A stretch of DNA of 32,000 nt from Candidatus Heimdallarchaeota archaeon (GCA_030614005.1 JAUWKS010000018.1:26068-58067); one strand, 5' to 3'. Positions 8,172 to 17,424 are shown, counted from the first letter of the stretch. Notes: a model not told the origin generated them from the letters alone. Made by a program: numbers and translations.

Positions 8172-9131
8172 ATGAGTGATGTTGAAGATTATGCTATTGT
8201 AGTTGAGGATTTGGTCAAAAAATATGGTGATTTAATAGCTGTAAATAATCTCTCTCTAAAAATAAAGCGAGGCGAGATTTTCGCTTTTCTTGGTCCGAAT
8301 GGTGCTGGAAAAACTACTGCTATTGAAATTCTTGAAGGTATTAGGAAAAAAACCAGTGGGAAAGTTATCGTTTTAGGAAAAGATATTGACAAACGAAAAG
8401 AGCTCGACCAAATAAAAAAAATCATTGGCACATTACCACAAGAATTCAATACGCATCTGAATTTAACAGTTAAAGAGAATCTTAGATTTTGGAGTAGAAT
8501 GTATGGGAAAAATATTCCAATTGAGGATTTAATAGCATTAGTTAAGCTTGAAGATAAAGCTAATGTACAATACAAAAATCTTTCAGGTGGTTTAAAACGT
8601 CGATTAGGTATTGCAATTTCACTTGTAAATGATCCTGAATTAGTATTCTTGGATGAACCTACAACTGGTCTTGATCCTCGTGCAAGACGGGAAACTTGGG
8701 AGATTATTAAGGGTCTTAAAGAACAAGGTAAAACGATTTTTTTGACAACTCATTATATGGAAGAAGCACATGTTTTAGCAGATAACGTTGGTATTATTTA
8801 CAAGGGAGAAATAATGGATATTGGTACTCCTACTGAATTAATCGATAAGCATGGTGGCGCTAACAAGATAATTGTTCGATGTAATGATCAAGAAACTCGC
8901 GATCAAATTTACAATATTCTCTTTGAGATGGGTCCTTTGGAAAATGACGATGGTGACATTGTTATTTCTGCTAAAAAGAAGGGAAGTATTTCCAAAGTGG
9001 TTGATTTACTTGAAGAAAATGATGTACCCTATTCTGATATAGTAACTCAAAGACCAACTCTAGAAGATATTTTTCTTACTCTAACAGGTGAGATATTGAT
9101 CACTTCAACAGAAACAGAGGAAAAGACTTGA
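8172..9131 (+). CDS. ABC-2 type exporter ATP-binding subunit
   Basis: Walker A GPNGAGKT, signature LSGG, Walker B LVFLDEPT and H-loop TTHY. Confidence 0.95.
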   Translation: MSDVEDYAIVVEDLVKKYGDLIAVNNLSLKIKRGEIFAFLGPNGAGKTTAIEILEGIRKKTSGKVIVLGKDIDKRKELDQIKKIIGTLPQEFNTHLNLTVKENLRFWSRMYGKNIPIEDLIALVKLEDKANVQYKNLSGGLKRRLGIAISLVNDPELVFLDEPTTGLDPRARRETWEIIKGLKEQGKTIFLTTHYMEEAHVLADNVGIIYKGEIMDIGTPTELIDKHGGANKIIVRCNDQETRDQIYNILFEMGPLENDDGDIVISAKKKGSISKVVDLLEENDVPYSDIVTQRPTLEDIFLTLTGEILITSTETEEKT

Positions 9132-9141
9132 GAGTGAAGAA

Positions 9142-10350
9142 ATGCCAGAACAAGAAACCTTCACTAAAAAAATATACTTGAGCCTTCGACGAATTTATGG
9201 TCAAACAGTAAGCACAGCAATACGTTGGGTTCGTTCAGGACCTGCATTGTTTTTCACATTTATCTATCCAATAATAATGATTCTTTTGTTTGGTTATATT
9301 TTCGGAGCAACAGACGATAGTTTGTATACATTGAATTACCTAAATGAAGATGTATATCAAGTTGGAGACAATACCTATGCTTTCAATCCCGCAAATCAAA
9401 TTTTACAAAATCTAGGATTAAATAACGATACACTTGCAGAAAGTTTGAACCTAAAATTGGTACAAGCATCTATTGAAACTTCATCAATTACTTACAATGA
9501 TTGGATGAAGAATAATGATATTCCCTATCTCTTGGTTATTCCATCTGGTTGGTCTGCTGCAGTTAATGAATCCAAAGTAAATGCGACAGCTCCTCAAGCA
9601 CTGATTGAATACTATTATGATCCCTCGTATACCTCTTCTAGCATCGTTCAAAGTATTATTGACAATGTTTTACAAGAAATGAACATAGCTGAATTTAGCA
9701 TTCCAACAGTGGTGGATGTTGTTGCAAGTACAACACCAAATAGAGAAGGATTAACTTACATAGATTTCATTGTTCCCGGTATGATAATGGTTACTATTTC
9801 AACTTCCAGTATGATGGGCATGGTTTCTATGGTTACAGAAGACCGGCAAAGTGGGAAAATAGATAAATATTCTGCCTCTCCACTTAAGAAATGGGAATGG
9901 GCATTATCACATGGATTGTGGCATACTTGTACTAGTTTTGCTATTTCAATTTTATCAGTCCTAACAGGTTGGATAGTTTTTGGTTTTCAATTGTCAACAA
10001 TTCATCCCTTAATGATTGGTGTTCTAATATTTGGTTCAATGACTTTTACTGGATTAGCTTTGGTGATCTCTAGATTTGTTAAGAAAACAGAAGCTGCAAT
10101 GGCTGCGACAATGTCTTTTGTTTTCCCTCAAATGTTCCTTTCAGGTGCGATACTTCCTGCAGAGATTATGCCAGATTTTATGCAAACAATTGCAAAAATC
10201 TTTCCACTTTATTATGTAAGCGAAGCAATGCGCAATATGATGTTGGAATCAACTTTTCATCTTGCATGGGTACCATTAGGTATTACCATAGGTATGGGTG
10301 TGGTGTTCTTTACAGTAGGGTCTATAATTACCGATTGGAGGAAAGAATAA
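9142..10350 (+). CDS. ABC-2 type permease with large extracellular domain
   Basis: One TM, an extracellular domain, then five TMs. YIDFIVPG, FPQMFLSG and PLYY motifs. Confidence 0.92.
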   Translation: MPEQETFTKKIYLSLRRIYGQTVSTAIRWVRSGPALFFTFIYPIIMILLFGYIFGATDDSLYTLNYLNEDVYQVGDNTYAFNPANQILQNLGLNNDTLAESLNLKLVQASIETSSITYNDWMKNNDIPYLLVIPSGWSAAVNESKVNATAPQALIEYYYDPSYTSSSIVQSIIDNVLQEMNIAEFSIPTVVDVVASTTPNREGLTYIDFIVPGMIMVTISTSSMMGMVSMVTEDRQSGKIDKYSASPLKKWEWALSHGLWHTCTSFAISILSVLTGWIVFGFQLSTIHPLMIGVLIFGSMTFTGLALVISRFVKKTEAAMAATMSFVFPQMFLSGAILPAEIMPDFMQTIAKIFPLYYVSEAMRNMMLESTFHLAWVPLGITIGMGVVFFTVGSIITDWRKE

Positions 10351-10362
10351 GGAGGAATAGCT

Positions 10363-11634
10363 ATGAAAAAAGACACAAGCATTCAGATAACCAATGAGGA
10401 TTCTAAACAAAGCAAAATAGCTTTCCTTACAAAGATACAACTATTTCTAAGAAGAGTTGGAGCATATATTGCTGCTGCGTTCATAGACTATAGAAGGTCA
10501 CCTTTGACAGTATTTTTCTCAGTTGCCTATCCGATAATTTTAATTCTACTTTTTGGAGCAATTTTTGCAGATAGCAATAACTCGTTCACTGCTTTCACAG
10601 TTTATGTGCAAAGTGAAGGAGATGAGGGATATGTGATTTCTCCAGTTCAGACACTTAATTTTACGGATGATCTCATTAATGCTTTGCAAACAATGAAAAC
10701 AAATGACAGTGAATCACTATTTGATGTTCATTTCATCCCACTAACGAATGACCAGAATGGTGCTATTAATCCTGGTGACTATCTTGAGGAAGTCCAAGGA
10801 TACATTTCTCTAGTAATACCCTTTAATTTCACTCAAGAAGTATTATTTAACCCGGATGTAACAAACCTTCAAATAATTCTGGATGAAAGTTCACAATCAG
10901 CATCTATTGCTTACAGTATTATTAGCAGTGTGATCTATCAATTCAATTTAGGTGTTTCAGGTTATAATGAAACTAAGATTGGGTTAGATACTTTTGATAT
11001 CTATTTGGAAGAAGAAATTGCTTACTTTGAATTTCTAATTCCTGGTATGATTTGTGTGGCACTGATGAATAATGGTGTAATGGGTACGATTAATAGATAT
11101 TCATTCTTTAGAAAACAAGGATTCTTCCGAAAACTATCAGCATCACCAATGAATAAAGCAGATGTTGTTGTTGGTGAAACTTCTTGGCAATTTGTTCAAG
11201 GAGCGATATCAATTATAGCTATTTTACTTGTAGGTTGGTTGGTATTTAAAGTACCGAGTGGAGATTTCAGTTGGATTATTAGAATTCTCGATTGGAAGAT
11301 TATTCTAGTAACAATATCAGCAGTTATGTCATTTGTTGGTTTGGGAATGATTGGATCAAGGCTCTCCAAGAATCCTGATGCAGCAACAGCTCTTGGCAAT
11401 TTCCTTACTTTCCCGATGATGTTCTTGAGCGGAGCATTTTTCGATGTATCTGGTGTGCCTGGAGTAAATGTCATATCAAAATTGTTACCCTTAACCTATT
11501 TGATAGATGCACTCCGTGCGACAATGATAACGGGAAACGTATCCATTGCCTGGATTAATATTGGAATAAGCTTTGCATTTGGAACTGCTTTAATGATAAT
11601 TGGCATTCTAATTACAAAACTAACAGAAGAATAA
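10363..11634 (+). CDS. ABC-2 type permease (second, paralogous)
   Basis: YFEFLIPG, FPMMFLSGAFF and LPLTY motifs; same topology as the preceding gene. Confidence 0.92.
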   Translation: MKKDTSIQITNEDSKQSKIAFLTKIQLFLRRVGAYIAAAFIDYRRSPLTVFFSVAYPIILILLFGAIFADSNNSFTAFTVYVQSEGDEGYVISPVQTLNFTDDLINALQTMKTNDSESLFDVHFIPLTNDQNGAINPGDYLEEVQGYISLVIPFNFTQEVLFNPDVTNLQIILDESSQSASIAYSIISSVIYQFNLGVSGYNETKIGLDTFDIYLEEEIAYFEFLIPGMICVALMNNGVMGTINRYSFFRKQGFFRKLSASPMNKADVVVGETSWQFVQGAISIIAILLVGWLVFKVPSGDFSWIIRILDWKIILVTISAVMSFVGLGMIGSRLSKNPDAATALGNFLTFPMMFLSGAFFDVSGVPGVNVISKLLPLTYLIDALRATMITGNVSIAWINIGISFAFGTALMIIGILITKLTEE

Positions 11635-11800: not shown

Positions 11801-11819
11801 AAAAATAAGCTATTTATAT
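11801..11819 (+). promoter_or_regulatory. BRE/TATA promoter of the uDENN-GTPase-7TM operon
   Basis: A-rich BRE followed by TTTATA at 11813-11818. SD AGGAG at 11856-11860. Confidence 0.5.
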
Positions 11820-11870
11820 CGTTTCTTGCAACTAATAAGAATATACTATCGTGAAAGGAGAATAAACTTT

Positions 11871-12362
11871 TTGAAACCACTAAGTCTCTGTTTAGTTCAA
11901 ATGGGTGATAAAGGATTGGAGATGGTGTCCTCACATCCCAAAGTTTTACCAAAGGAAGTTCTGAATGAATTGACCTACAAGTCAATGCCTATGGGAGCTA
12001 AAGCAGGAGAATTTGCTTCCTCCTCTGTAGGTGATTTATTTTACTCAAGTTATATCTTTTCTTTGCCAAGAGAAGGGTCTCGAGACAATATTTGTGCTAT
12101 AATTGCTGTTTTTAATGACATGAAGTACAATATTGACGGAATTAGAAAAATTTTCTCGTTTTTAATTAAGGAATTAGAAACAAACACTCTCCTAAAATTG
12201 GATCTAATAGAGGAAATATTGCCTAATCTCTATAATGGTTTTAGTAAAGGAAATATTCGAATAAAAATTAGCTCAGTAGCGACAATAACAATTGATTTTG
12301 AAAATAAAACAGAAGAACCGATTGATGAAACAAATGTTCTAGAAGACGACTTATGGAAATAA
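11871..12362 (+). CDS. uDENN/longin-domain protein (FLCN/SMCR8/NPRL2-like), candidate GAP
   Basis: LCLVQMGDKGLEMVSSHP beta-hairpin, helix ending YKSMP, then YSSYIFSLPREGSRDNICAIIAVF. TTG 11871 preferred over 11826 because of the promoter and SD positions. Confidence 0.7.
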   Translation: MKPLSLCLVQMGDKGLEMVSSHPKVLPKEVLNELTYKSMPMGAKAGEFASSSVGDLFYSSYIFSLPREGSRDNICAIIAVFNDMKYNIDGIRKIFSFLIKELETNTLLKLDLIEEILPNLYNGFSKGNIRIKISSVATITIDFENKTEEPIDETNVLEDDLWK

Positions 12363-12390
12363 CAACTGTCTAGAAAAGGAGTGTGAATGT

Positions 12391-12930
12391 GTGTCATTTC
12401 TACGAAATCTCTTCAAAAGAAGAACAAAAGAAGTCGATATAACGATTTGTGGTTTAGCCAGCGCAGGAAAAACAACTATTGTGAGATATCTTGAGACTGG
12501 TCAATTTGTGGAAACACAACCAACAATGGGTATCAACCGTGGTGAGACAATTAAAGTTGAAAAACTTGAAATAAATATTTTTGATCTAGGTGGGCAAGAT
12601 GATTTCAGAGTTCTCTGGCCCGAAGTTAATGAAAATTCAAATGGCGTAGTTTTTGTTGTTGATAAACACGATGCAATGAAATTTGAAGAGGCTCGTCTAG
12701 CATTTCAAGAAATTGTCAAATCACAAATACATGAAGATGTTATTGTACTTATTTTATTACACAAAAATGATATTCCTGGAGGAATGGCTCGAAGCACTTT
12801 CATTCAAGACTTTGATTTAATTGATTTATCATTTAAATGGGCATGCTATGAAACTTCTGCAAAAACAGGTGAGAACATCTTCGAAGCATTCAGATGGTTT
12901 TTTGATCAATTAATGGAGGAATCTTCTTAA
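12391..12930 (+). CDS. Arf-family small GTPase
   Basis: N-terminal amphipathic helix MSFLRNLF, G1 GLASAGKTT, G2 PTMG, G3 DLGGQ, G4 HKND and G5 SAK. Confidence 0.93.
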   Translation: MSFLRNLFKRRTKEVDITICGLASAGKTTIVRYLETGQFVETQPTMGINRGETIKVEKLEINIFDLGGQDDFRVLWPEVNENSNGVVFVVDKHDAMKFEEARLAFQEIVKSQIHEDVIVLILLHKNDIPGGMARSTFIQDFDLIDLSFKWACYETSAKTGENIFEAFRWFFDQLMEESS

Positions 12931-13784
12931 TGGCCAACGCTTTAACATGGTTTTATATTATTTTTTCATGGTTAACAGTAACTGTGAATATTGTATTGGC
13001 AGGTGCTTTACTTAAAAACTTCCTCAATAAAAAAACTACAGGAACGTTAATTCTATTTACATCCTATCTAATAATTGGTATTAGTACTATTTTCGGTGCA
13101 ATTCTTTACACAGCAGAATATTTCGGAATCGGAATTGAGTTTGTAGGTGTAAATCAAACAATGGGAACAGTTCTTCCAGTGGGTGCATTGCTCCTAATCT
13201 ATGTTTTCACTTGTAGGCACATTCTTAGAGATAATGAAATGGTAAAATCCATGCATTTGATAATCATTTCTGTTTTGATTGGTTTTATTTTGGCACTTTA
13301 TTTTTTGGCTATATTTGGAATCACACAACCAGATGGTTTCATATTTGCAGAAGGTCAAAGTCCATTATGGTATCAAATAACTAAAACCGATGTTCCAAAC
13401 ACAAATCTATTTAGCTTGACAATAATTTCTACTACTTTAGTTATTACTGCAATTCAAATATATATCAATACTAGAATTATTGTGAGAGCATTTATGCTCT
13501 CTCGTAGAACCGATAAGATTATTCGCAAACGTGGTCTGCAAATGATTGGTTGGGGTTTAGTTATTTATATTGTAGCTGGAATTATTCTTGCTTTAGAATT
13601 GGTTATTCCTTGGTCTGTAGGTAGTTTTGCCCCTACTATTTTCTGGACTCTACGAAAGACGATATTCTTTGCTTCATATGTAGTCCTTTACTTGGGTTGG
13701 ATTATGCCCGACTGGTTCAGAAGACGTCTACGAGGAAAAACTTGGTTTGAAATGCAATATAAAACAGTCACAAAACAGTCTTAG
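12930..13784 (+). CDS. Seven-transmembrane protein of unknown function
   Basis: Seven hydrophobic segments by eye, basic loop between TM5 and TM6, C-terminal YLGWIMPDWFRRR. The start overlaps the GTPase stop (TAATG). Confidence 0.85.
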   Translation: MANALTWFYIIFSWLTVTVNIVLAGALLKNFLNKKTTGTLILFTSYLIIGISTIFGAILYTAEYFGIGIEFVGVNQTMGTVLPVGALLLIYVFTCRHILRDNEMVKSMHLIIISVLIGFILALYFLAIFGITQPDGFIFAEGQSPLWYQITKTDVPNTNLFSLTIISTTLVITAIQIYINTRIIVRAFMLSRRTDKIIRKRGLQMIGWGLVIYIVAGIILALELVIPWSVGSFAPTIFWTLRKTIFFASYVVLYLGWIMPDWFRRRLRGKTWFEMQYKTVTKQS

Positions 13785-14012
13785 GGGAAACATTCCTCTA
13801 TCTCTACTTTTTTTGGTTTTGAATATTTTTCTACAAGATGTTCTGTATCACTTTTTTGTTATCAATTGCGATGTCTTTAAATAGATGATTGGTGACTACT
13901 CTCTCGCTGGTTAGATAATCTCTAATCAACGGTGAGTGAGTTGACCTAACTCGGTTTTTAGAGTTTAAAATTCGAAGTGGATTGTGAGTTGACCGACCGT
14001 CCCTCTACTAGT

Positions 14013-14296
14013 TCACTGTGAATCAACTAGGTGAATAAAATGTATAAACAAAAACAAGAAATTCGTAATGAATTCAGAAAAGTGCTGGCTAAACCAGGAA
14101 TTGAAGTCCATCGAACATTGAAATAAATAAATACCAAATACCGAAAGGAGAAACAAAAAAATGACAAATAAAAACCATAAATCAAGTAGAAAAATCAATA
14201 CAAGCATTGCAAAGGCAAGAAATGAGAGCCTAAATTTGAATTTCCATATTGTGATTAACAAATAGAAGCAATGAGAAAGATACTAGTTAACAGCAC
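14013..14296 (-). pseudogene. Small two-TM membrane protein, possibly frameshifted near 14262
   Basis: The 82-aa ORF (14013-14261) has T at codon position 2 in 34 of the first 48 codons, versus 23 and 20 at positions 1 and 3 (hand count). An upstream GGAGATGA SD and GTG 14296 (MLLTSIFLIASI) join it if one T is restored. Confidence 0.4.
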
Positions 14297-14478
14297 TAGC
14301 TAATCATCTCCCATTTCACCTATACATTTGCAAACAGAAAATTGAGTCAGAACAGAGAACGGATCAAACCGTTAGTGATCAAACATGGATGCCTGCATTG
14401 CAGGTGTTCAACTTGATATTTTCAGCTAATTTTACTTCAAAATTAACCTATTAAGAAAAAGTTATTGAAGGTAAGAAA

Positions 14479-14500
14479 GAGGAATCGGGAAAAATTCCTC
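14479..14500 (-). terminator. Hairpin downstream of the HAAS gene
   Basis: GAGGAAT-N8-ATTCCTC, followed on the minus strand by T-rich sequence. Confidence 0.4.
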
Positions 14501-14512
14501 CATCTTCCTTCC

Positions 14513-15706
14513 TTATTTTTGTGGGAATCCATCAAAACCTAGCCGAGTCATTCGAATGAAATCAGATAACATCTTTAAGATTGTTCCACCAATTACTACC
14601 CACACAACAATTGTTGCTATGGTTTGGAAGGTATCTGCAGTGATATAGGTTTGAACGAATCCAAATACCCAATCATAGGCAATTTCACGTCTATAGAGAA
14701 TTGCATGGTAAAGTGCGATATTAAATCCTTGAGGTGCAAGGCCAAGAAAGAGTAATGCTTGTTGTAATCCAACTCTTCTGCCGACTAAAGCTTGGAAGAA
14801 GCGTATGAATCCTAATACCAATCCTGTTACACCTGTGAGTGCAAACCAGATTTTCAGTTGATCTGGTAGAAAGTCTAGGAATGGCATGAAAGGAAGAATT
14901 ATTGCTATTACACCAAATGCTATGCCCATAATTCCTTCAGAAAGATAATCTTTTCCAAGATGTTTATGTCGTTTTCCCATTCTAGGTGTTGGTTCTGTAA
15001 TAGTTCTTACAGGTCTTTCCTTTACCACTTGTGGTTCTATAACTGGTTTAGTTAGCGGGACTGTTTCATACTTTTCTTCGTGAATAGAAGCTGCACGTGT
15101 ATCTTCCTTCTTTGGTTCGTCTGCTGCTCTAAATCTATCAAAAGGAATATGAAAAACAAATCTCTTTCCTAACCGATCGAAATCTTCTGGTAGATATCCT
15201 TCATGGGATAGATAGATGAATTGTACTGTAATAAGTACTAAAGCAATTGCAACACTCATCATTGAACCTGATATCCAACTTGAAAATAGCTCTCCAACAC
15301 CAATACTACCATTGACAGTTGAAGGTATTCTAGTAAACATTACTAAGAGATTAATTCCAAGTAGTACTCCAGCAACGATATAGACAACTTTAGTGTAACC
15401 TGTCCACAATTCCTCTGTGATGAAGAATTTTGGTTTGCCTCGTCGTTTGTATTCTCCAGCAATTTTGCTTGGAGTGCCCATCTGATCAATGACTTGTTTT
15501 ATATCCTCTATTGATGGTTCTTCTCCATCAGCCAATTCAGTTGCTCTATCCCAAATATGGGTTTCAAGCTCTTCTAGGATGTCAACTACATTCTTTTTCT
15601 CATCTTTTAACCAGAATGGTAGCTTTCTTTCAACTTCATCCAAGAATTCTTTGACAAGTCTTTGATCTTCGCTTAAATTTTCTAAATTATTTTTGTTTTC
15701 ACTCAT
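14513..15706 (-). CDS. HAAS-domain membrane protein (PadR partner)
   Basis: N-terminal FLDEVERKLP..DILEELETHI..G..IDQMGTPSKIAGEY matches the HAAS signalling domain. TM helices and a Pro/charged loop follow. Lies 4 nt downstream of the PadR gene. Confidence 0.8.
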   Translation of the reverse strand: MSENKNNLENLSEDQRLVKEFLDEVERKLPFWLKDEKKNVVDILEELETHIWDRATELADGEEPSIEDIKQVIDQMGTPSKIAGEYKRRGKPKFFITEELWTGYTKVVYIVAGVLLGINLLVMFTRIPSTVNGSIGVGELFSSWISGSMMSVAIALVLITVQFIYLSHEGYLPEDFDRLGKRFVFHIPFDRFRAADEPKKEDTRAASIHEEKYETVPLTKPVIEPQVVKERPVRTITEPTPRMGKRHKHLGKDYLSEGIMGIAFGVIAIILPFMPFLDFLPDQLKIWFALTGVTGLVLGFIRFFQALVGRRVGLQQALLFLGLAPQGFNIALYHAILYRREIAYDWVFGFVQTYITADTFQTIATIVVWVVIGGTILKMLSDFIRMTRLGFDGFPQK

Positions 15707-15710
15707 TACA

Positions 15711-16241
15711 TCACGCCCTCTGACTAATTAACTCCTCTACAAAAATACCACAAACTTCGCAGTATTTTGCATCAACATCCAATTTGATTTGATTTGCACA
15801 GTTAGGACAATACATAAACTCATCTTCAGGGAGATCGATTCCAAACTCCATCAAAGGAGATATTGCTTCAAGAAGTTTAGCAAAAAATCCTGTCATATGA
15901 TTTAGTAGTTTATGTCCTGCATCCGTTAAGATGTAATATCTTCTCGGGCGGCCCGTTAATTCTTTCTTTTCAGACTTGAGAACTCCACCTTTCTCCATTT
16001 TTCGTAATAGTGGGTACAATGTTCCTTCCTCAATAATCAGTACATTGTTTGTTTCTTGTTCTAATTCTTTTAGTAATTGATATCCATAGATTCCTTCATC
16101 GGGATATCGTTTGAGGATTTGTAATACCGTAACGGTAGATATTCCTCGTAGTAATTCTGATTCAAAGCTTTCAACGTATGTTCTAAAGTGGTCATTGCCG
16201 ATCAATGCTTCCGGGTGGAATGATTTTACTTTTTTTAACAC
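15711..16241 (-). CDS. PadR-family transcriptional regulator with C-terminal zinc ribbon
   Basis: YGYQLLKEL, EGTLYPLLRKME and RPRRYYILTDAG, then CPNC...CEVC. Confidence 0.92.
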   Translation of the reverse strand: MLKKVKSFHPEALIGNDHFRTYVESFESELLRGISTVTVLQILKRYPDEGIYGYQLLKELEQETNNVLIIEEGTLYPLLRKMEKGGVLKSEKKELTGRPRRYYILTDAGHKLLNHMTGFFAKLLEAISPLMEFGIDLPEDEFMYCPNCANQIKLDVDAKYCEVCGIFVEELISQRA

Positions 16242-16297
16242 GAGTATTCGCCTTCTTTTGTTATATTGTTTAGTATTGCTGTTATATTATTGATACA

Positions 16298-16318
16298 ATA
16301 CTATACCACATATAGTAT
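16298..16318. promoter_or_regulatory. Probable PadR operator palindrome
   Basis: Perfect ATACTATA-CCACA-TATAGTAT lying between the minus-strand TATA box (16325-16332) and the expected start site of the padR operon. Confidence 0.6.
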
Positions 16319-16419
16319 ATGCTATATATAAACATTCACATTTCTTGGAAAAAAAGAAATAGCAAAAAATAGTGAGCTACAAAGTAAAAATATTTTAGGT
16401 GGTAGGTGGTAAATTATGC

Positions 16420-17424
16420 ATGCGTCTATTAGCAATTGCAGATACACACTTTGGATTTGAATCAGGTAAATCCGCAGAAGCTCGAAAATTTACTTATGAA
16501 AGTATGTTCAATAAATTTGAAGAAATAATTGCTATTGCTAAAAAGCAAAAAGTAGATGCGATTTTGCATGCCGGTGATTTTTTCAATAGAAGTGCACCTC
16601 GAAAAAAAGTGCTAAAGAGATCCTATGAATTGGTTGAGAGAATTTTACTTGAAGACATTGATTTTCTGGTTATCCCGGGTAATCACGAGCGAGCTAAGTT
16701 ACCTGAATCTTTATTGAGCTTTCATAAAAAAAGCCATTTCTTCAATAAATTGTTAAAAGTTGACTTAGACCAGTGCTCTATAGTTGGCTTTCCCTTCATA
16801 CGGAATGATCCACAATCTGTGGCAGAAAAAATCAATAAATTACTACTTGCTGAACATAAAAAACCTAATATCGTACTGTGCCATCAATTATTTGAGGGTG
16901 CAACGTTTGGTCCACATCAATTTGTTTTTCGAAAGAATCATGGAACAATTAACATAACTGCTGCTTTCGAAGATGTTTCTCTAATTATTTCTGGTCACAT
17001 TCATCGTGCTCAAATTCTTTTTGATGGCTTAGTCGTTTATCCGGGTTCAATTGAACGAACAAGTTTTCTTGAATTTATAGAACCAAAAGGCTATCTAATG
17101 ATTGATATTGAATCAAATTTTATCAAAGTGGAATTTCATACTTTGACATCACTACCAATGAGTGTAATTGAATTACCAGTACGCAATATTGACCTTGACT
17201 ACGATTCTTTGCTCTCTGCTATTAAACCCGGTCTTCATCGAACCTTATTACGATTAACTGGTCGAAAATTAACTACTGCTGAAATAGAAAATTTGAGAAA
17301 CTTTTTCCCCGCTAACGAATATCCTTTATTGGTTGTTAGCCCTCGTTTGTCTGAATTTTCTCTAAAACCACTCTATACGAATAATGTTCCATTTGATTTT
17401 CCTCCTTTTGTTAAAAAATATTAA
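16420..17424 (+). CDS. Mre11/SbcD-like calcineurin-type metallophosphoesterase (DNA repair exonuclease family)
   Basis: ADTH, AGDFF, PGNHE, CHQ, SGHIH and YPGSIERTSFLE motifs. ATG 16420 follows AGGTGGT. Confidence 0.88.
   Translation: MRLLAIADTHFGFESGKSAEARKFTYESMFNKFEEIIAIAKKQKVDAILHAGDFFNRSAPRKKVLKRSYELVERILLEDIDFLVIPGNHERAKLPESLLSFHKKSHFFNKLLKVDLDQCSIVGFPFIRNDPQSVAEKINKLLLAEHKKPNIVLCHQLFEGATFGPHQFVFRKNHGTINITAAFEDVSLIISGHIHRAQILFDGLVVYPGSIERTSFLEFIEPKGYLMIDIESNFIKVEFHTLTSLPMSVIELPVRNIDLDYDSLLSAIKPGLHRTLLRLTGRKLTTAEIENLRNFFPANEYPLLVVSPRLSEFSLKPLYTNNVPFDFPPFVKKY

Follow-up and report, generated by a model that had tools for sequence, protein, structure and literature searches.

Do three adjacent genes of an Asgard archaeon, encoding a longin-domain protein, an Arf-family GTPase and a seven-transmembrane (7TM) protein, act together as a single device, and what kind of device would it be? 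The question is raised by a 32,000-nucleotide stretch of DNA from a Candidatus Heimdallarchaeota archaeon (GCA_030614005.1 JAUWKS010000018.1:26068-58067; hereafter the window), where a sequence-only reading had proposed an operon whose 7TM protein, GTPase and longin would resemble the circuit formed by a G protein-coupled receptor (GPCR), its G protein and a GTPase-activating protein (GAP). Judged from their sequences, the three genes, which lie co-directionally on the + strand at positions 11871-13784, are an operon-like unit inherited and duplicated as a block, and we consider it very probable that their products form a functional unit. We infer roles of sensor, guanine-nucleotide exchange factor (GEF) and GAP within that unit, and a direction of signalling. 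The gene set named in the earlier proposal is correct, but its order (7TM, GTPase, longin) is not that of the DNA, which runs longin (gene A), GTPase (gene B) and 7TM protein (gene C).

Gene A extends from a TTG at 11871 to 12362 and encodes a 163-residue protein with a putative NPRL2-like longin domain. Gene B runs from a GTG at 12391 to 12930 and encodes a 179-residue small GTPase assigned to the Arf family (ArfR type), while gene C, from an ATG at 12930 to 13784, encodes a 284-residue orphan 7TM protein with a predicted N-out/C-in topology and a helix 8. Alternative starts for gene A exist at an earlier TTG (11826) and a later ATG (11901); TTG 11871 was chosen because all 28 homologues begin at this position (MKP.SLCLVQMG), mostly with ATG. 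Genes A and B are separated by 28 nucleotides, and the stop codon of gene B (12928-12930) overlaps the start codon of gene C (12930-12932) in a TAATG, as it also does at locus L003 of the same genus. Together with a GGAGG inside the 3′ end of gene B, this overlap forms a putative translational-coupling junction (12915-12932). Ribosome-binding sites of the GGAG type at 11857-11860, 12378-12381 and 12915-12919 each lie 9-10 nucleotides 5′ of a start codon.

With a profile of gene C, full-length relatives turn up in only two families of the class, in 8 of 11 other genomes of one and 9 of 30 of the second at E 1e-10; about 320 further genomes of the phylum yielded none. Our census comprises the 38 loci in these two families that hold a full-length member of the 7TM family. 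At every locus, save one that is cut by a contig end, a longin gene lies co-directional with and directly upstream of the 7TM gene; 28 loci have the order A-B-C and 9-10 have A-C. The distance between genes A and B is 11-29 nucleotides across the cassettes (69 in one of them) and that between B and C about -1 to 24, the starts of gene C being approximate. Between the two families, gene C products are 30-34% identical and gene A products 40-50%, and the order is kept. This arrangement is far beyond chance, because order and tight spacing recur in 28 cassettes of two families. The gene order on which the sequence-only reading had made its operon depend thus holds among orthologues and paralogues alike, and the census bears out a self-contained, conserved three-gene cassette.

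The genome studied here has three A-B-C copies (the present one, C74 and C18) and two A-C copies (C10 and C16), and their flanks are unrelated. Within the genome, gene B is most similar to the GTPase genes of the other two A-B-C cassettes (64% and 47% identity); the next closest paralogue (39%) lies outside any cassette. All 10-11 clades of the gene C tree were recovered in separately built trees of genes A and B. Because the three trees share clades, they indicate that the cassette duplicated and diverged as a unit, into about eight to ten lineages within one genus. The A-C type makes up two clades nested among A-B-C types in the gene C tree, which is unrooted, and this position suggests that the GTPase gene was lost from them.

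What are the three proteins? Gene A matches no Pfam family, NCBIfam and PADLOC scans likewise yielded no meaningful match, and its 28 homologues are every one of Asgard source. The structural model of its product (predicted local distance difference test, pLDDT, 74.6) has the longin order beta-beta-alpha-beta-beta-beta-alpha-alpha, followed in the C-terminal part by a small hairpin and then by a disordered acidic tail with a terminal helix, ending in DDLW. A Foldseek search of the PDB with this model places GATOR1 chains at the top (E 1.8e-6, template-modelling score, or TM-score, 0.71), followed by Lst4, FLCN and a Lokiarchaeal roadblock-longin. Structural comparison with VIA aligns the model to residues 5-160 of the GATOR1 chain (Z 16.5, root-mean-square deviation 2.8 over 144 residues), with weaker matches to FLCN (Z 11.7), SMCR8 (Z 9.6) and the longins of adaptins, SNAREs and TRAPP (Z 8-10). 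The top five matches in the Swiss-Prot part of AlphaFold DB are NPRL2 of fly, human, cattle and mouse and fission-yeast Npr2 (E 4e-7 to 5e-6; residues 6-162 of the human protein), and we therefore take the matched GATOR1 chain to be NPRL2.

On the strength of these three sets of model matches, the gene A product is best described as a stand-alone NPRL2-like longin, of a kind that is abundant in Asgards according to Liu et al. (bioRxiv 10.1101/2020.10.19.343400). It is a single-domain protein of 163 residues, and the cassette holds no second longin gene. A profile of the longin family gave no sequence match to solved structures even at E up to 10. Of the earlier label of uDENN/longin, the longin part is supported, the protein being a longin of the GAP-associated NPRL2 kind with a conserved arginine; "uDENN" fits less well than "NPRL2-type longin".

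The most conserved parts of the gene A product are the loop that joins strands 1 and 2, M-G-x-K-G-L-E with M-G-x-K-G invariant, a second loop reading MPxGA..GDF, R71 and N73 at the turn between strands 4 and 5, a PNLY helix and the C-terminal (D/E)(D/E)(L/V)W. In the first of these loops G15 is invariant and is followed by leucine, not proline. R71 (codon 12081-12083), the candidate arginine finger, is kept in 35 of 36 longins, as is the C-terminal motif, and N73 is invariant in the alignment of orthologues. The strand 1-2 loop and the strand 4-5 turn are neighbours in a longin sheet. NPRL2 Arg78 is the GAP finger of GATOR1 toward RagA, and the aligned ranges (model 1-144 to chain 5-160) are compatible with R71 as its counterpart. 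The same side-by-side geometry has been described for the GP motif of GAP-type longins and their arginine finger (PMC12290439).

Gene B is readily placed by its matches to Pfam models. The Arf model PF00025 is found at E 4e-37 (127.8 bits, cut-off 22.3), as the proposed Arf-like GTPase would require, and Ras, Roc, SRPRB and Gtr1_RagA lie far below it (SRPRB at E 5.6e-8 and 32.8 bits, cut-off 25); the G-alpha model PF00503 reaches 32.2 bits, under its cut-off of 48.8. Among PDB sequences, gene B comes closest to eukaryotic Arf1 proteins (E 7e-29 to 3e-28), followed by GerdArfR1 (8OUN) over its whole length (E 2.8e-27), an entry given as full-length GerdArfR1-GDP in the preprint of Vargova et al. 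(bioRxiv 10.1101/2024.02.28.582541). Gene B encodes the P-loop GLASAGKT, DLGGQ with the catalytic Q69, the G4 motif HKND and the G5 motif SAK. Across an alignment of 14 orthologues the P-loop, switch I T45, DLGGQ and SAK are invariant.

The N-terminus of the GTPase, MSFLRNLFKRR, is amphipathic and lacks Gly2. The 14 orthologues share this MSFLxxLFK start without Gly2 (M1, F3 and F8 invariant, L7 nearly so), and it appears to resemble the N-termini of ArfR and Arf1. The N-terminal helix is reported to be required for membrane binding by ArfR (bioRxiv 10.1101/2024.02.28.582541). Gene B is, on present sequence matches, an Arf-family GTPase of the ArfR type with an intact catalytic glutamine; the ArfR label rests on those matches, and the subfamily is defined by its cassette rather than by a tree with reference ArfRs.

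Some further features of the GTPase genes were noted. The G4 motif (window 12757-12768) reads HKND, HKCD or HKAD in this genus, while the other family and other paralogue lineages carry the canonical NKSD or NKAD. For this reason, the G4 histidine is a recent, lineage-specific change and not a Rag-type hallmark of the subfamily. The genome contains 44 matches to the Arf model, several of them in frames of 310-350 residues that are maybe fusion proteins. The next-closest ArfR-like genes, G000:C9:70311-70925 (39% identical to gene B) and G000:C73:19161-19700 (34%), have no longin or 7TM neighbours.

Gene C, alone or among 31 members of its family, belongs to no Pfam or NCBIfam family. Its model (pLDDT 86.4; predicted template-modelling score, pTM, 0.82) contains seven long helices, a short helix at residues 261-268 (helix 8) and a terminal helix. 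Loops 1-2, 3-4 and 5-6 together with the tail carry 20 lysines and arginines and the opposite side carries 1, and because of this concentration the N-terminus is predicted to lie outside. Conservation follows the same division, with majority frequencies of 0.83 in the cytoplasmic segments (entropy 0.70), 0.59 in the helices and 0.42 in the outer loops (entropy 2.04). Conserved cytoplasmic motifs include NFxRKKTxGT in loop 1, R-H-I-L-x-D at the end of transmembrane helix 3 and in loop 2, RRTDKxxRKRG in loop 3 and GWIMPDWFRRRxRGKTWFE in helix 8 and the tail. A conserved inner face combined with a variable outer face is the pattern that a protein with a conserved cytoplasmic partner would show.

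Is this 7TM protein a GPCR? No GPCR model matched any of the 31 family members at E up to 10. Foldseek relates the model to GPCRs at E about 1e-2 with TM-scores of 0.44-0.54, and VIA gives Z 14-15 for GPCRs of classes A, C, D and T and 13.0 for the rhodopsin KR2, values to be read against the Z of about 14 that helical models reach by arrangement alone. Homology to GPCRs is not supported, the fold likeness being generic and at the level expected of any helical bundle. A rhodopsin was rejected: no lysine is conserved in transmembrane helix 7 (K243 varies in distant members), and KR2 is one of many matches at Z 13. The earlier naming of a 7TM protein stands, and the protein has a GPCR-like topology (N-out, C-in, helix 8) and a strongly conserved cytoplasmic face, but no link in sequence to any GPCR family was found.

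The best structural neighbours of gene C outside its own family are prokaryotic 7TM modules, many of which carry a HisKA_7TM annotation or are joined to GGDEF, HD or kinase output domains. They are found at E 1.5e-5 to 1e-4 and TM-scores of 0.63-0.70 among AlphaFold DB clusters and at TM-scores of 0.62-0.67 in the ESM Atlas, and a weak language-model lead also points toward prokaryotic 7TM input modules. Homology to HisKA_7TM (PF16927) itself was tried and rejected, with no Pfam match and an hhalign probability of 1% against 12 true members from the same archaeal class. The gene C family is small, comprising 77 representative clusters among 1.84 billion proteins, all of them stand-alone. No fusion with a GTPase, a longin or an output domain was found in these 1.84 billion representatives, and the neighbours of one match of 398 residues were not informative.

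Outside the intact cassettes, a few related loci were recorded. Possibly decayed paralogous cassettes occur at L015:940-1458 (an in-frame stop in the GTPase), L017:1501-2265 (two TAA stops in the 7TM protein) and L037:323-1730 (split GTPase and 7TM frames), and may be either pseudogenes or assembly errors. Distant relatives of the 7TM protein, about 245 residues long, are present at L021-L029 in other families of the class and phylum (for example L025:605-1788), where the profile matches mostly helices 5-7 at E 1e-4 to 1e-11. Each is preceded by a gene of about 147 codons, often overlapping or at a spacing of 12 nucleotides, with no GTPase gene between the two. The products of these genes have sub-threshold matches to longin and roadblock Pfam models and end in ..LW like gene A; homology between them and gene A was rejected at an hhalign probability below 1%. 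A broader pairing of a small longin-like protein with a 7TM protein is a lead only.

Do the three products touch one another? One complex prediction was run, with the 7TM protein as the scored partner against the GTPase and longin, in three runs and with three controls. The ipSAE interface score was 0.48 (0.48, 0.50 and 0.47 in the three runs), and the controls gave 0.00, 0.00 and 0.09, the last being the control in which the GTPase was replaced. Agreement between runs extends to at least 77% of contacts, with a pLDDT of at least 80 for the partner. When the method was calibrated, 58 of 80 solved complexes reached the mark, as did 2 of 110 mismatched pairs; only 7 of the 80 and both mismatches did so at scores of 0.60 or under. 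The structure prediction that the sequence-only reading had suggested for pairs of the proteins, carried out here jointly, thus lends weak support to contact of the 7TM protein with the GTPase and longin.

Two hints single out the GTPase within this predicted assembly. One is the fall of the score when the GTPase is replaced, which hints that the predicted contact involves it. The second comes from the cassettes that appear to have lost their GTPase gene: a GK(T/A)W motif after helix 8 of the 7TM protein is lost or disturbed in both A-C clades, where the other cytoplasmic motifs are kept, and all A-B-C copies retain it. Loss of this motif alongside the GTPase, which amounts to two events only, hints in the same direction.

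These observations can be assembled into a membrane-coupled Arf-family GTPase switch. The 7TM protein would sit in the cell membrane with its N-terminus outside, exposing a basic, conserved cytoplasmic face made of three loops, helix 8 and the tail. This face would dock the GTPase, whose own amphipathic N-terminal helix may also bind the membrane. As the membrane-side input, whether receptor or platform, the 7TM protein would set the place at which the GTPase is active, and probably the nucleotide state too, by exchange-factor activity or by docking of the GTP state; we judge the exchange factor most likely. Its variable outer loops could serve as paralogue-specific inputs.

The ArfR protein would be the switch of this system. 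The longin would be its soluble regulator, most likely an NPRL2/FLCN/SMCR8-type GAP acting through Arg71 beside the glycine-rich strand 1-2 loop. An acidic tail ending in DDLW may hold the longin at the basic face of the 7TM protein, and such a tether would account for the persistent pairing of longin and 7TM genes in cassettes from which the GTPase gene has gone.

How far can this switch be trusted? As an explanation of the cassette as a whole, we hold the membrane-coupled switch to be evenly poised between right and wrong, and the specific assignment of sensor or GEF, switch and GAP is more tentative still, approaching an even chance without exceeding it. Several points weigh against it. The verdict of the complex-prediction tool on contact between the 7TM protein and the GTPase (with the longin) is "weak support". 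Sensing by the 7TM protein is conjectural, and its outer loops perhaps vary simply from lack of constraint. On the longin side, the GP motif of GAP-type longins is only half kept in the gene A family (G-L, not G-P), and the putative equivalence of R71 with NPRL2 Arg78 is drawn from aligned ranges. Eukaryotic GAP longins are heterodimers of two longins with extra domains, whereas gene A encodes a lone protein of 163 residues. The A-C cassettes, which lack a GTPase gene, retain R71 as well, and whatever this residue does may thus be unrelated to gene B. Finally, the wider neighbourhood of the cassette is kept at locus L033 as well, and conservation across the two families could in part be general synteny.

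This last objection, in its extreme form, would make the three genes neighbours without functional coupling, joined by inherited synteny only. At L033 an ABC-2 transporter upstream and PadR/HAAS and metallophosphoesterase genes downstream are indeed conserved around the cassette, so that some of the synteny among orthologues is vertical inheritance. The evidence from paralogues is free of this objection, because paralogous cassettes have unrelated flanks and nevertheless keep order and spacing. Add the longin gene adjoining the 7TM gene throughout the 38-locus census (one locus cut by a contig end), the congruent trees of A, B and C and the translational coupling implied by the TAATG, and mere adjacency becomes hardly credible. 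What these same lines of evidence (complex score, census and trees) do not separate is the direction of control, for they fit equally well a 7TM protein that is the target and not the input: a transporter, channel or enzyme-like protein switched by ArfR-GTP, with the longin setting the state of the GTPase from a cytoplasmic cue. NPRL2 acts in nutrient signalling as a regulator of just this sort. Conserved polar or charged residues in the transmembrane core (R242, Y46, Y250 and Y254) would suit such a target, and Asgard NPRL2-like longins fused to two-component domains suggest input on the longin side (Liu et al., bioRxiv 10.1101/2020.10.19.343400). However, searches of Pfam and NCBIfam related the 7TM protein to no family of transporters or channels, its top structural neighbours are sensor-type 7TM modules and receptors, and its conservation lies on the cytoplasmic face, not in a pore or pocket. 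We regard control of the 7TM protein by the GTPase as unlikely, though it is the main rival to the membrane-coupled switch.

Less likely than this are two readings drawn from membrane traffic and protein targeting. The Arf identity and amphipathic N-terminus of gene B would be at home in a membrane-remodelling or sorting unit with no signalling circuit, in which ArfR-GTP inserts its helix and recruits the longin as an adaptor (in the manner of sigma- or mu-adaptin or SNARE longins) and the 7TM protein is cargo or a cargo receptor. Asgard Arfs bind membranes and can deform them in heterologous cells (PMC11914678; bioRxiv 10.1101/2024.02.28.582541), and longins of adaptin small and medium chains are among the fold matches of gene A at Z 8-10. 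Yet NPRL2, at Z 16.5, is a far better fit than these adaptor and SNARE longins, the cassette includes no coat-like partner, and the presence of as many as five 7TM paralogues in a genome, each having a longin of its own, suits specific switches better than a general coat; a sorting unit is therefore quite improbable. A targeting device resembling the receptor of the signal recognition particle, with the GTPase as SR-beta, the longin as the SRX domain of SR-alpha and the 7TM protein as anchor or translocon-side partner, has even poorer prospects. The GTPase does match SRPRB above its cut-off, the SR-beta/SRX complex 1nrj appears in the Foldseek list of the longin (E 0.07), and ArfR falls in a clade with Arf and SR-beta in the analysis of Vargova et al. 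(bioRxiv 10.1101/2024.02.28.582541). Set against this are 127.8 bits for Arf compared with 32.8 for SRPRB, a weak fold match to SRX relative to that with NPRL2, and a cassette confined to two families and present in several copies, which is not what a core targeting machine would show, so that we give this reading almost no weight.

Signals for expression surround the cassette. A TATA-like box, TTTATAT (11813-11819, + strand), is a candidate archaeal promoter read from the DNA; it follows an A-rich stretch resembling a transcription factor B recognition element and lies about 50 nucleotides upstream of the gene A start, within an intergenic region that is 76% identical to that of L003. Directly 3′ of gene C, at 13782-13820 on the + strand, lies a terminator-like element: a hairpin (13782-13800) found by a terminator scan, after which the DNA has runs of seven (13808-13814) and four (13817-13820) T residues. 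All the elements that had been claimed, namely three co-directional genes, one promoter, a 28-nucleotide gap with a Shine-Dalgarno sequence, a TAATG overlap and a T-run, are present. A scan for sigma-70-type promoters returned 13 sites with 13.2 expected and is uninformative for an archaeon. Among the sequencing runs listed as containing the cassette, or a 1-kb segment of it, there is none of RNA, and those of DNA are marine-sediment and cold-seep metagenomes.

Upstream, the cassette is flanked by an ABC-2 type exporter set (ATPase and two permeases; window 8172-11634). On its downstream side the opposite strand carries genes for a PadR-like regulator and its HAAS-type membrane partner, and then for a metallophosphoesterase (window 14513-17424). 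The same flanks surround the orthologous cassette at L033 (GCA_011364945.1), where the 7TM protein is only 38% identical. The region after the cassette, 13785-14520, is 84% identical over 736 nucleotides to that of L003, compared with 74% for the 7TM gene and 83% for gene A, and has no Rfam match. Two small frames on the + strand with good ribosome-binding sites are located at 14040-14126 (28 residues) and 14161-14265 (34 residues). The first also occurs downstream of the cassette in L033 (59% over 22 residues) and L001 (43% over 21 residues), with the common motif K.L.KPG(I/M)E, and both may be unannotated small proteins that travel with the cassette. A defence system or mobile element was considered and rejected, with no PADLOC matches and no integrase or transposase among the inspected neighbours. 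No tRNA was found in the window by ARAGORN or by Rfam at gathering thresholds, from which a heavily interrupted gene would be expected to escape.

What does the cassette add to the known regulation of archaeal GTPases? Full-text literature searches found no description of an operon of longin, Arf GTPase and 7TM protein. A 2026 preprint names "7TM proteins" and a "class C GPCR" cluster, without detail, among structural families shared by Asgards and eukaryotes (bioRxiv 10.64898/2026.10.28.762692), and this cluster may overlap the gene C family. In the cultured Loki strain MK-D1, GTPase genes are reported to lie generally outside operons with longin or roadblock regulators (Tran et al., PMC10933270), which makes their partners hard to predict. 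The present cassette is an exception to that pattern, in that one ArfR subfamily is tied, by conserved linkage and joint duplication, to one NPRL2-like longin and to one membrane protein. It supplies named candidates for the regulators and the membrane partner of archaeal Arf GTPases, in the form of three small proteins suited to direct expression and assay.

If the proposed roles are true, control of an Arf-type switch by a membrane receptor, with a longin GAP, predates eukaryotes. A more far-reaching version, which we consider improbable, would make the 7TM protein a true archaeal receptor that catalyses or gates exchange on an Arf-family GTPase and the longin its arginine-finger GAP, the whole being a forerunner or sister of the SLC38A9-Rag-GATOR1 system and possibly of the coupling of 7TM proteins to G proteins generally. 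Were that receptor and GAP reading correct, a complete circuit would exist in the archaeal lineage nearest to eukaryotes.

Among prokaryotic systems, the closest parallel in design is the actinobacterial conservon, an analogy of design and not homology of the set. Conservons are multi-copy operons encoding the sensor kinase CvnA, the roadblock/MglB protein CvnB, the GEF-like CvnC (DUF742) and the MglA-like small GTPase CvnD, and have been likened to GPCR/G-protein signalling (PMC4316618, PMC13621833, PMC13343842). The cassette likewise is a prokaryotic multi-copy operon that joins a membrane protein, a small GTPase of the Ras superfamily and a regulator of the roadblock superfamily. However, it has neither a histidine-kinase domain nor a CvnC-like gene, its GTPase is of the Arf and not the MglA-like kind, its regulator is a longin rather than MglB/roadblock, and its host is an Asgard and not a member of the Actinomycetota. 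Gene C resembles HisKA_7TM modules in fold (TM-scores 0.62-0.70), but is never fused to an output domain.

Comparison with single components is also instructive. Asgard ArfR proteins have been shown to be genuine switches of the Arf family. Gene B shares with the Asgard ArfR/AArf proteins (HodArfR1 and GerdArfR1; PDB 8OUK-8OUN) an amphipathic N-terminus, the lack of a myristoylation glycine and the catalytic glutamine 69, but its subfamily is set apart from the described ArfRs by its cassette; the searched text of the ArfR papers gives no gene neighbourhood, membrane partner or GAP for ArfRs, and that of the ArfR preprint never uses the term GEF. For the longin, the C9orf72-SMCR8-WDR41 complex (CSW), which acts on Arf GTPases, and FLCN-FNIP, which acts on RagC, offer a longin fold with a catalytic-type arginine beside the strand 1-2 loop, for which R71 is the candidate counterpart in gene A. 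Unlike them, gene A lacks the proline of the GP motif, a DENN domain and a second longin subunit, and FLCN and SMCR8 are its weaker fold matches. Heimdallarchaeia are reported to hold GAP-type longins with an arginine finger, the partner GTPase being left open in that account (PMC12290439).

The likeness to a GPCR circuit, which the sequence-only reading had emphasized, is one of layout: an N-out/C-in 7TM protein with helix 8, a basic R-H at the cytoplasmic end of transmembrane helix 3, a conserved inner and variable outer face, a coupled GTPase gene and a separate candidate GAP. Unlike GPCR, G-alpha and regulator of G-protein signalling (RGS) systems, however, the cassette has a small Arf without a helical domain, no beta or gamma subunits, and a longin in place of an RGS protein as candidate GAP. 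Of the circuit first proposed, the conserved cassette and the protein identities are upheld, while kinship with GPCRs is not. The cassette belongs to none of the system families compared here. By analogy, its closest eukaryotic parallel would be SLC38A9, Rag and the NPRL2 of GATOR1, ahead of GPCR, G-alpha and RGS. SLC38A9 is a lysosomal membrane protein that serves as sensor and GEF. The cassette differs from that system in its GTPase, a single-domain Arf type where a Rag also carries a roadblock dimerisation domain; in its longin, which stands alone and lacks NPRL3 as a partner, DEPDC5 and the C-terminal domain of NPRL2; and in its membrane protein, an orphan 7TM unrelated to SLC38 transporters. 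What the archaeal and lysosomal systems have in common is the combination of a multi-pass membrane protein, an Arf/Rag-like small GTPase and an NPRL2-type longin with an arginine that appears to lie at the matching turn.

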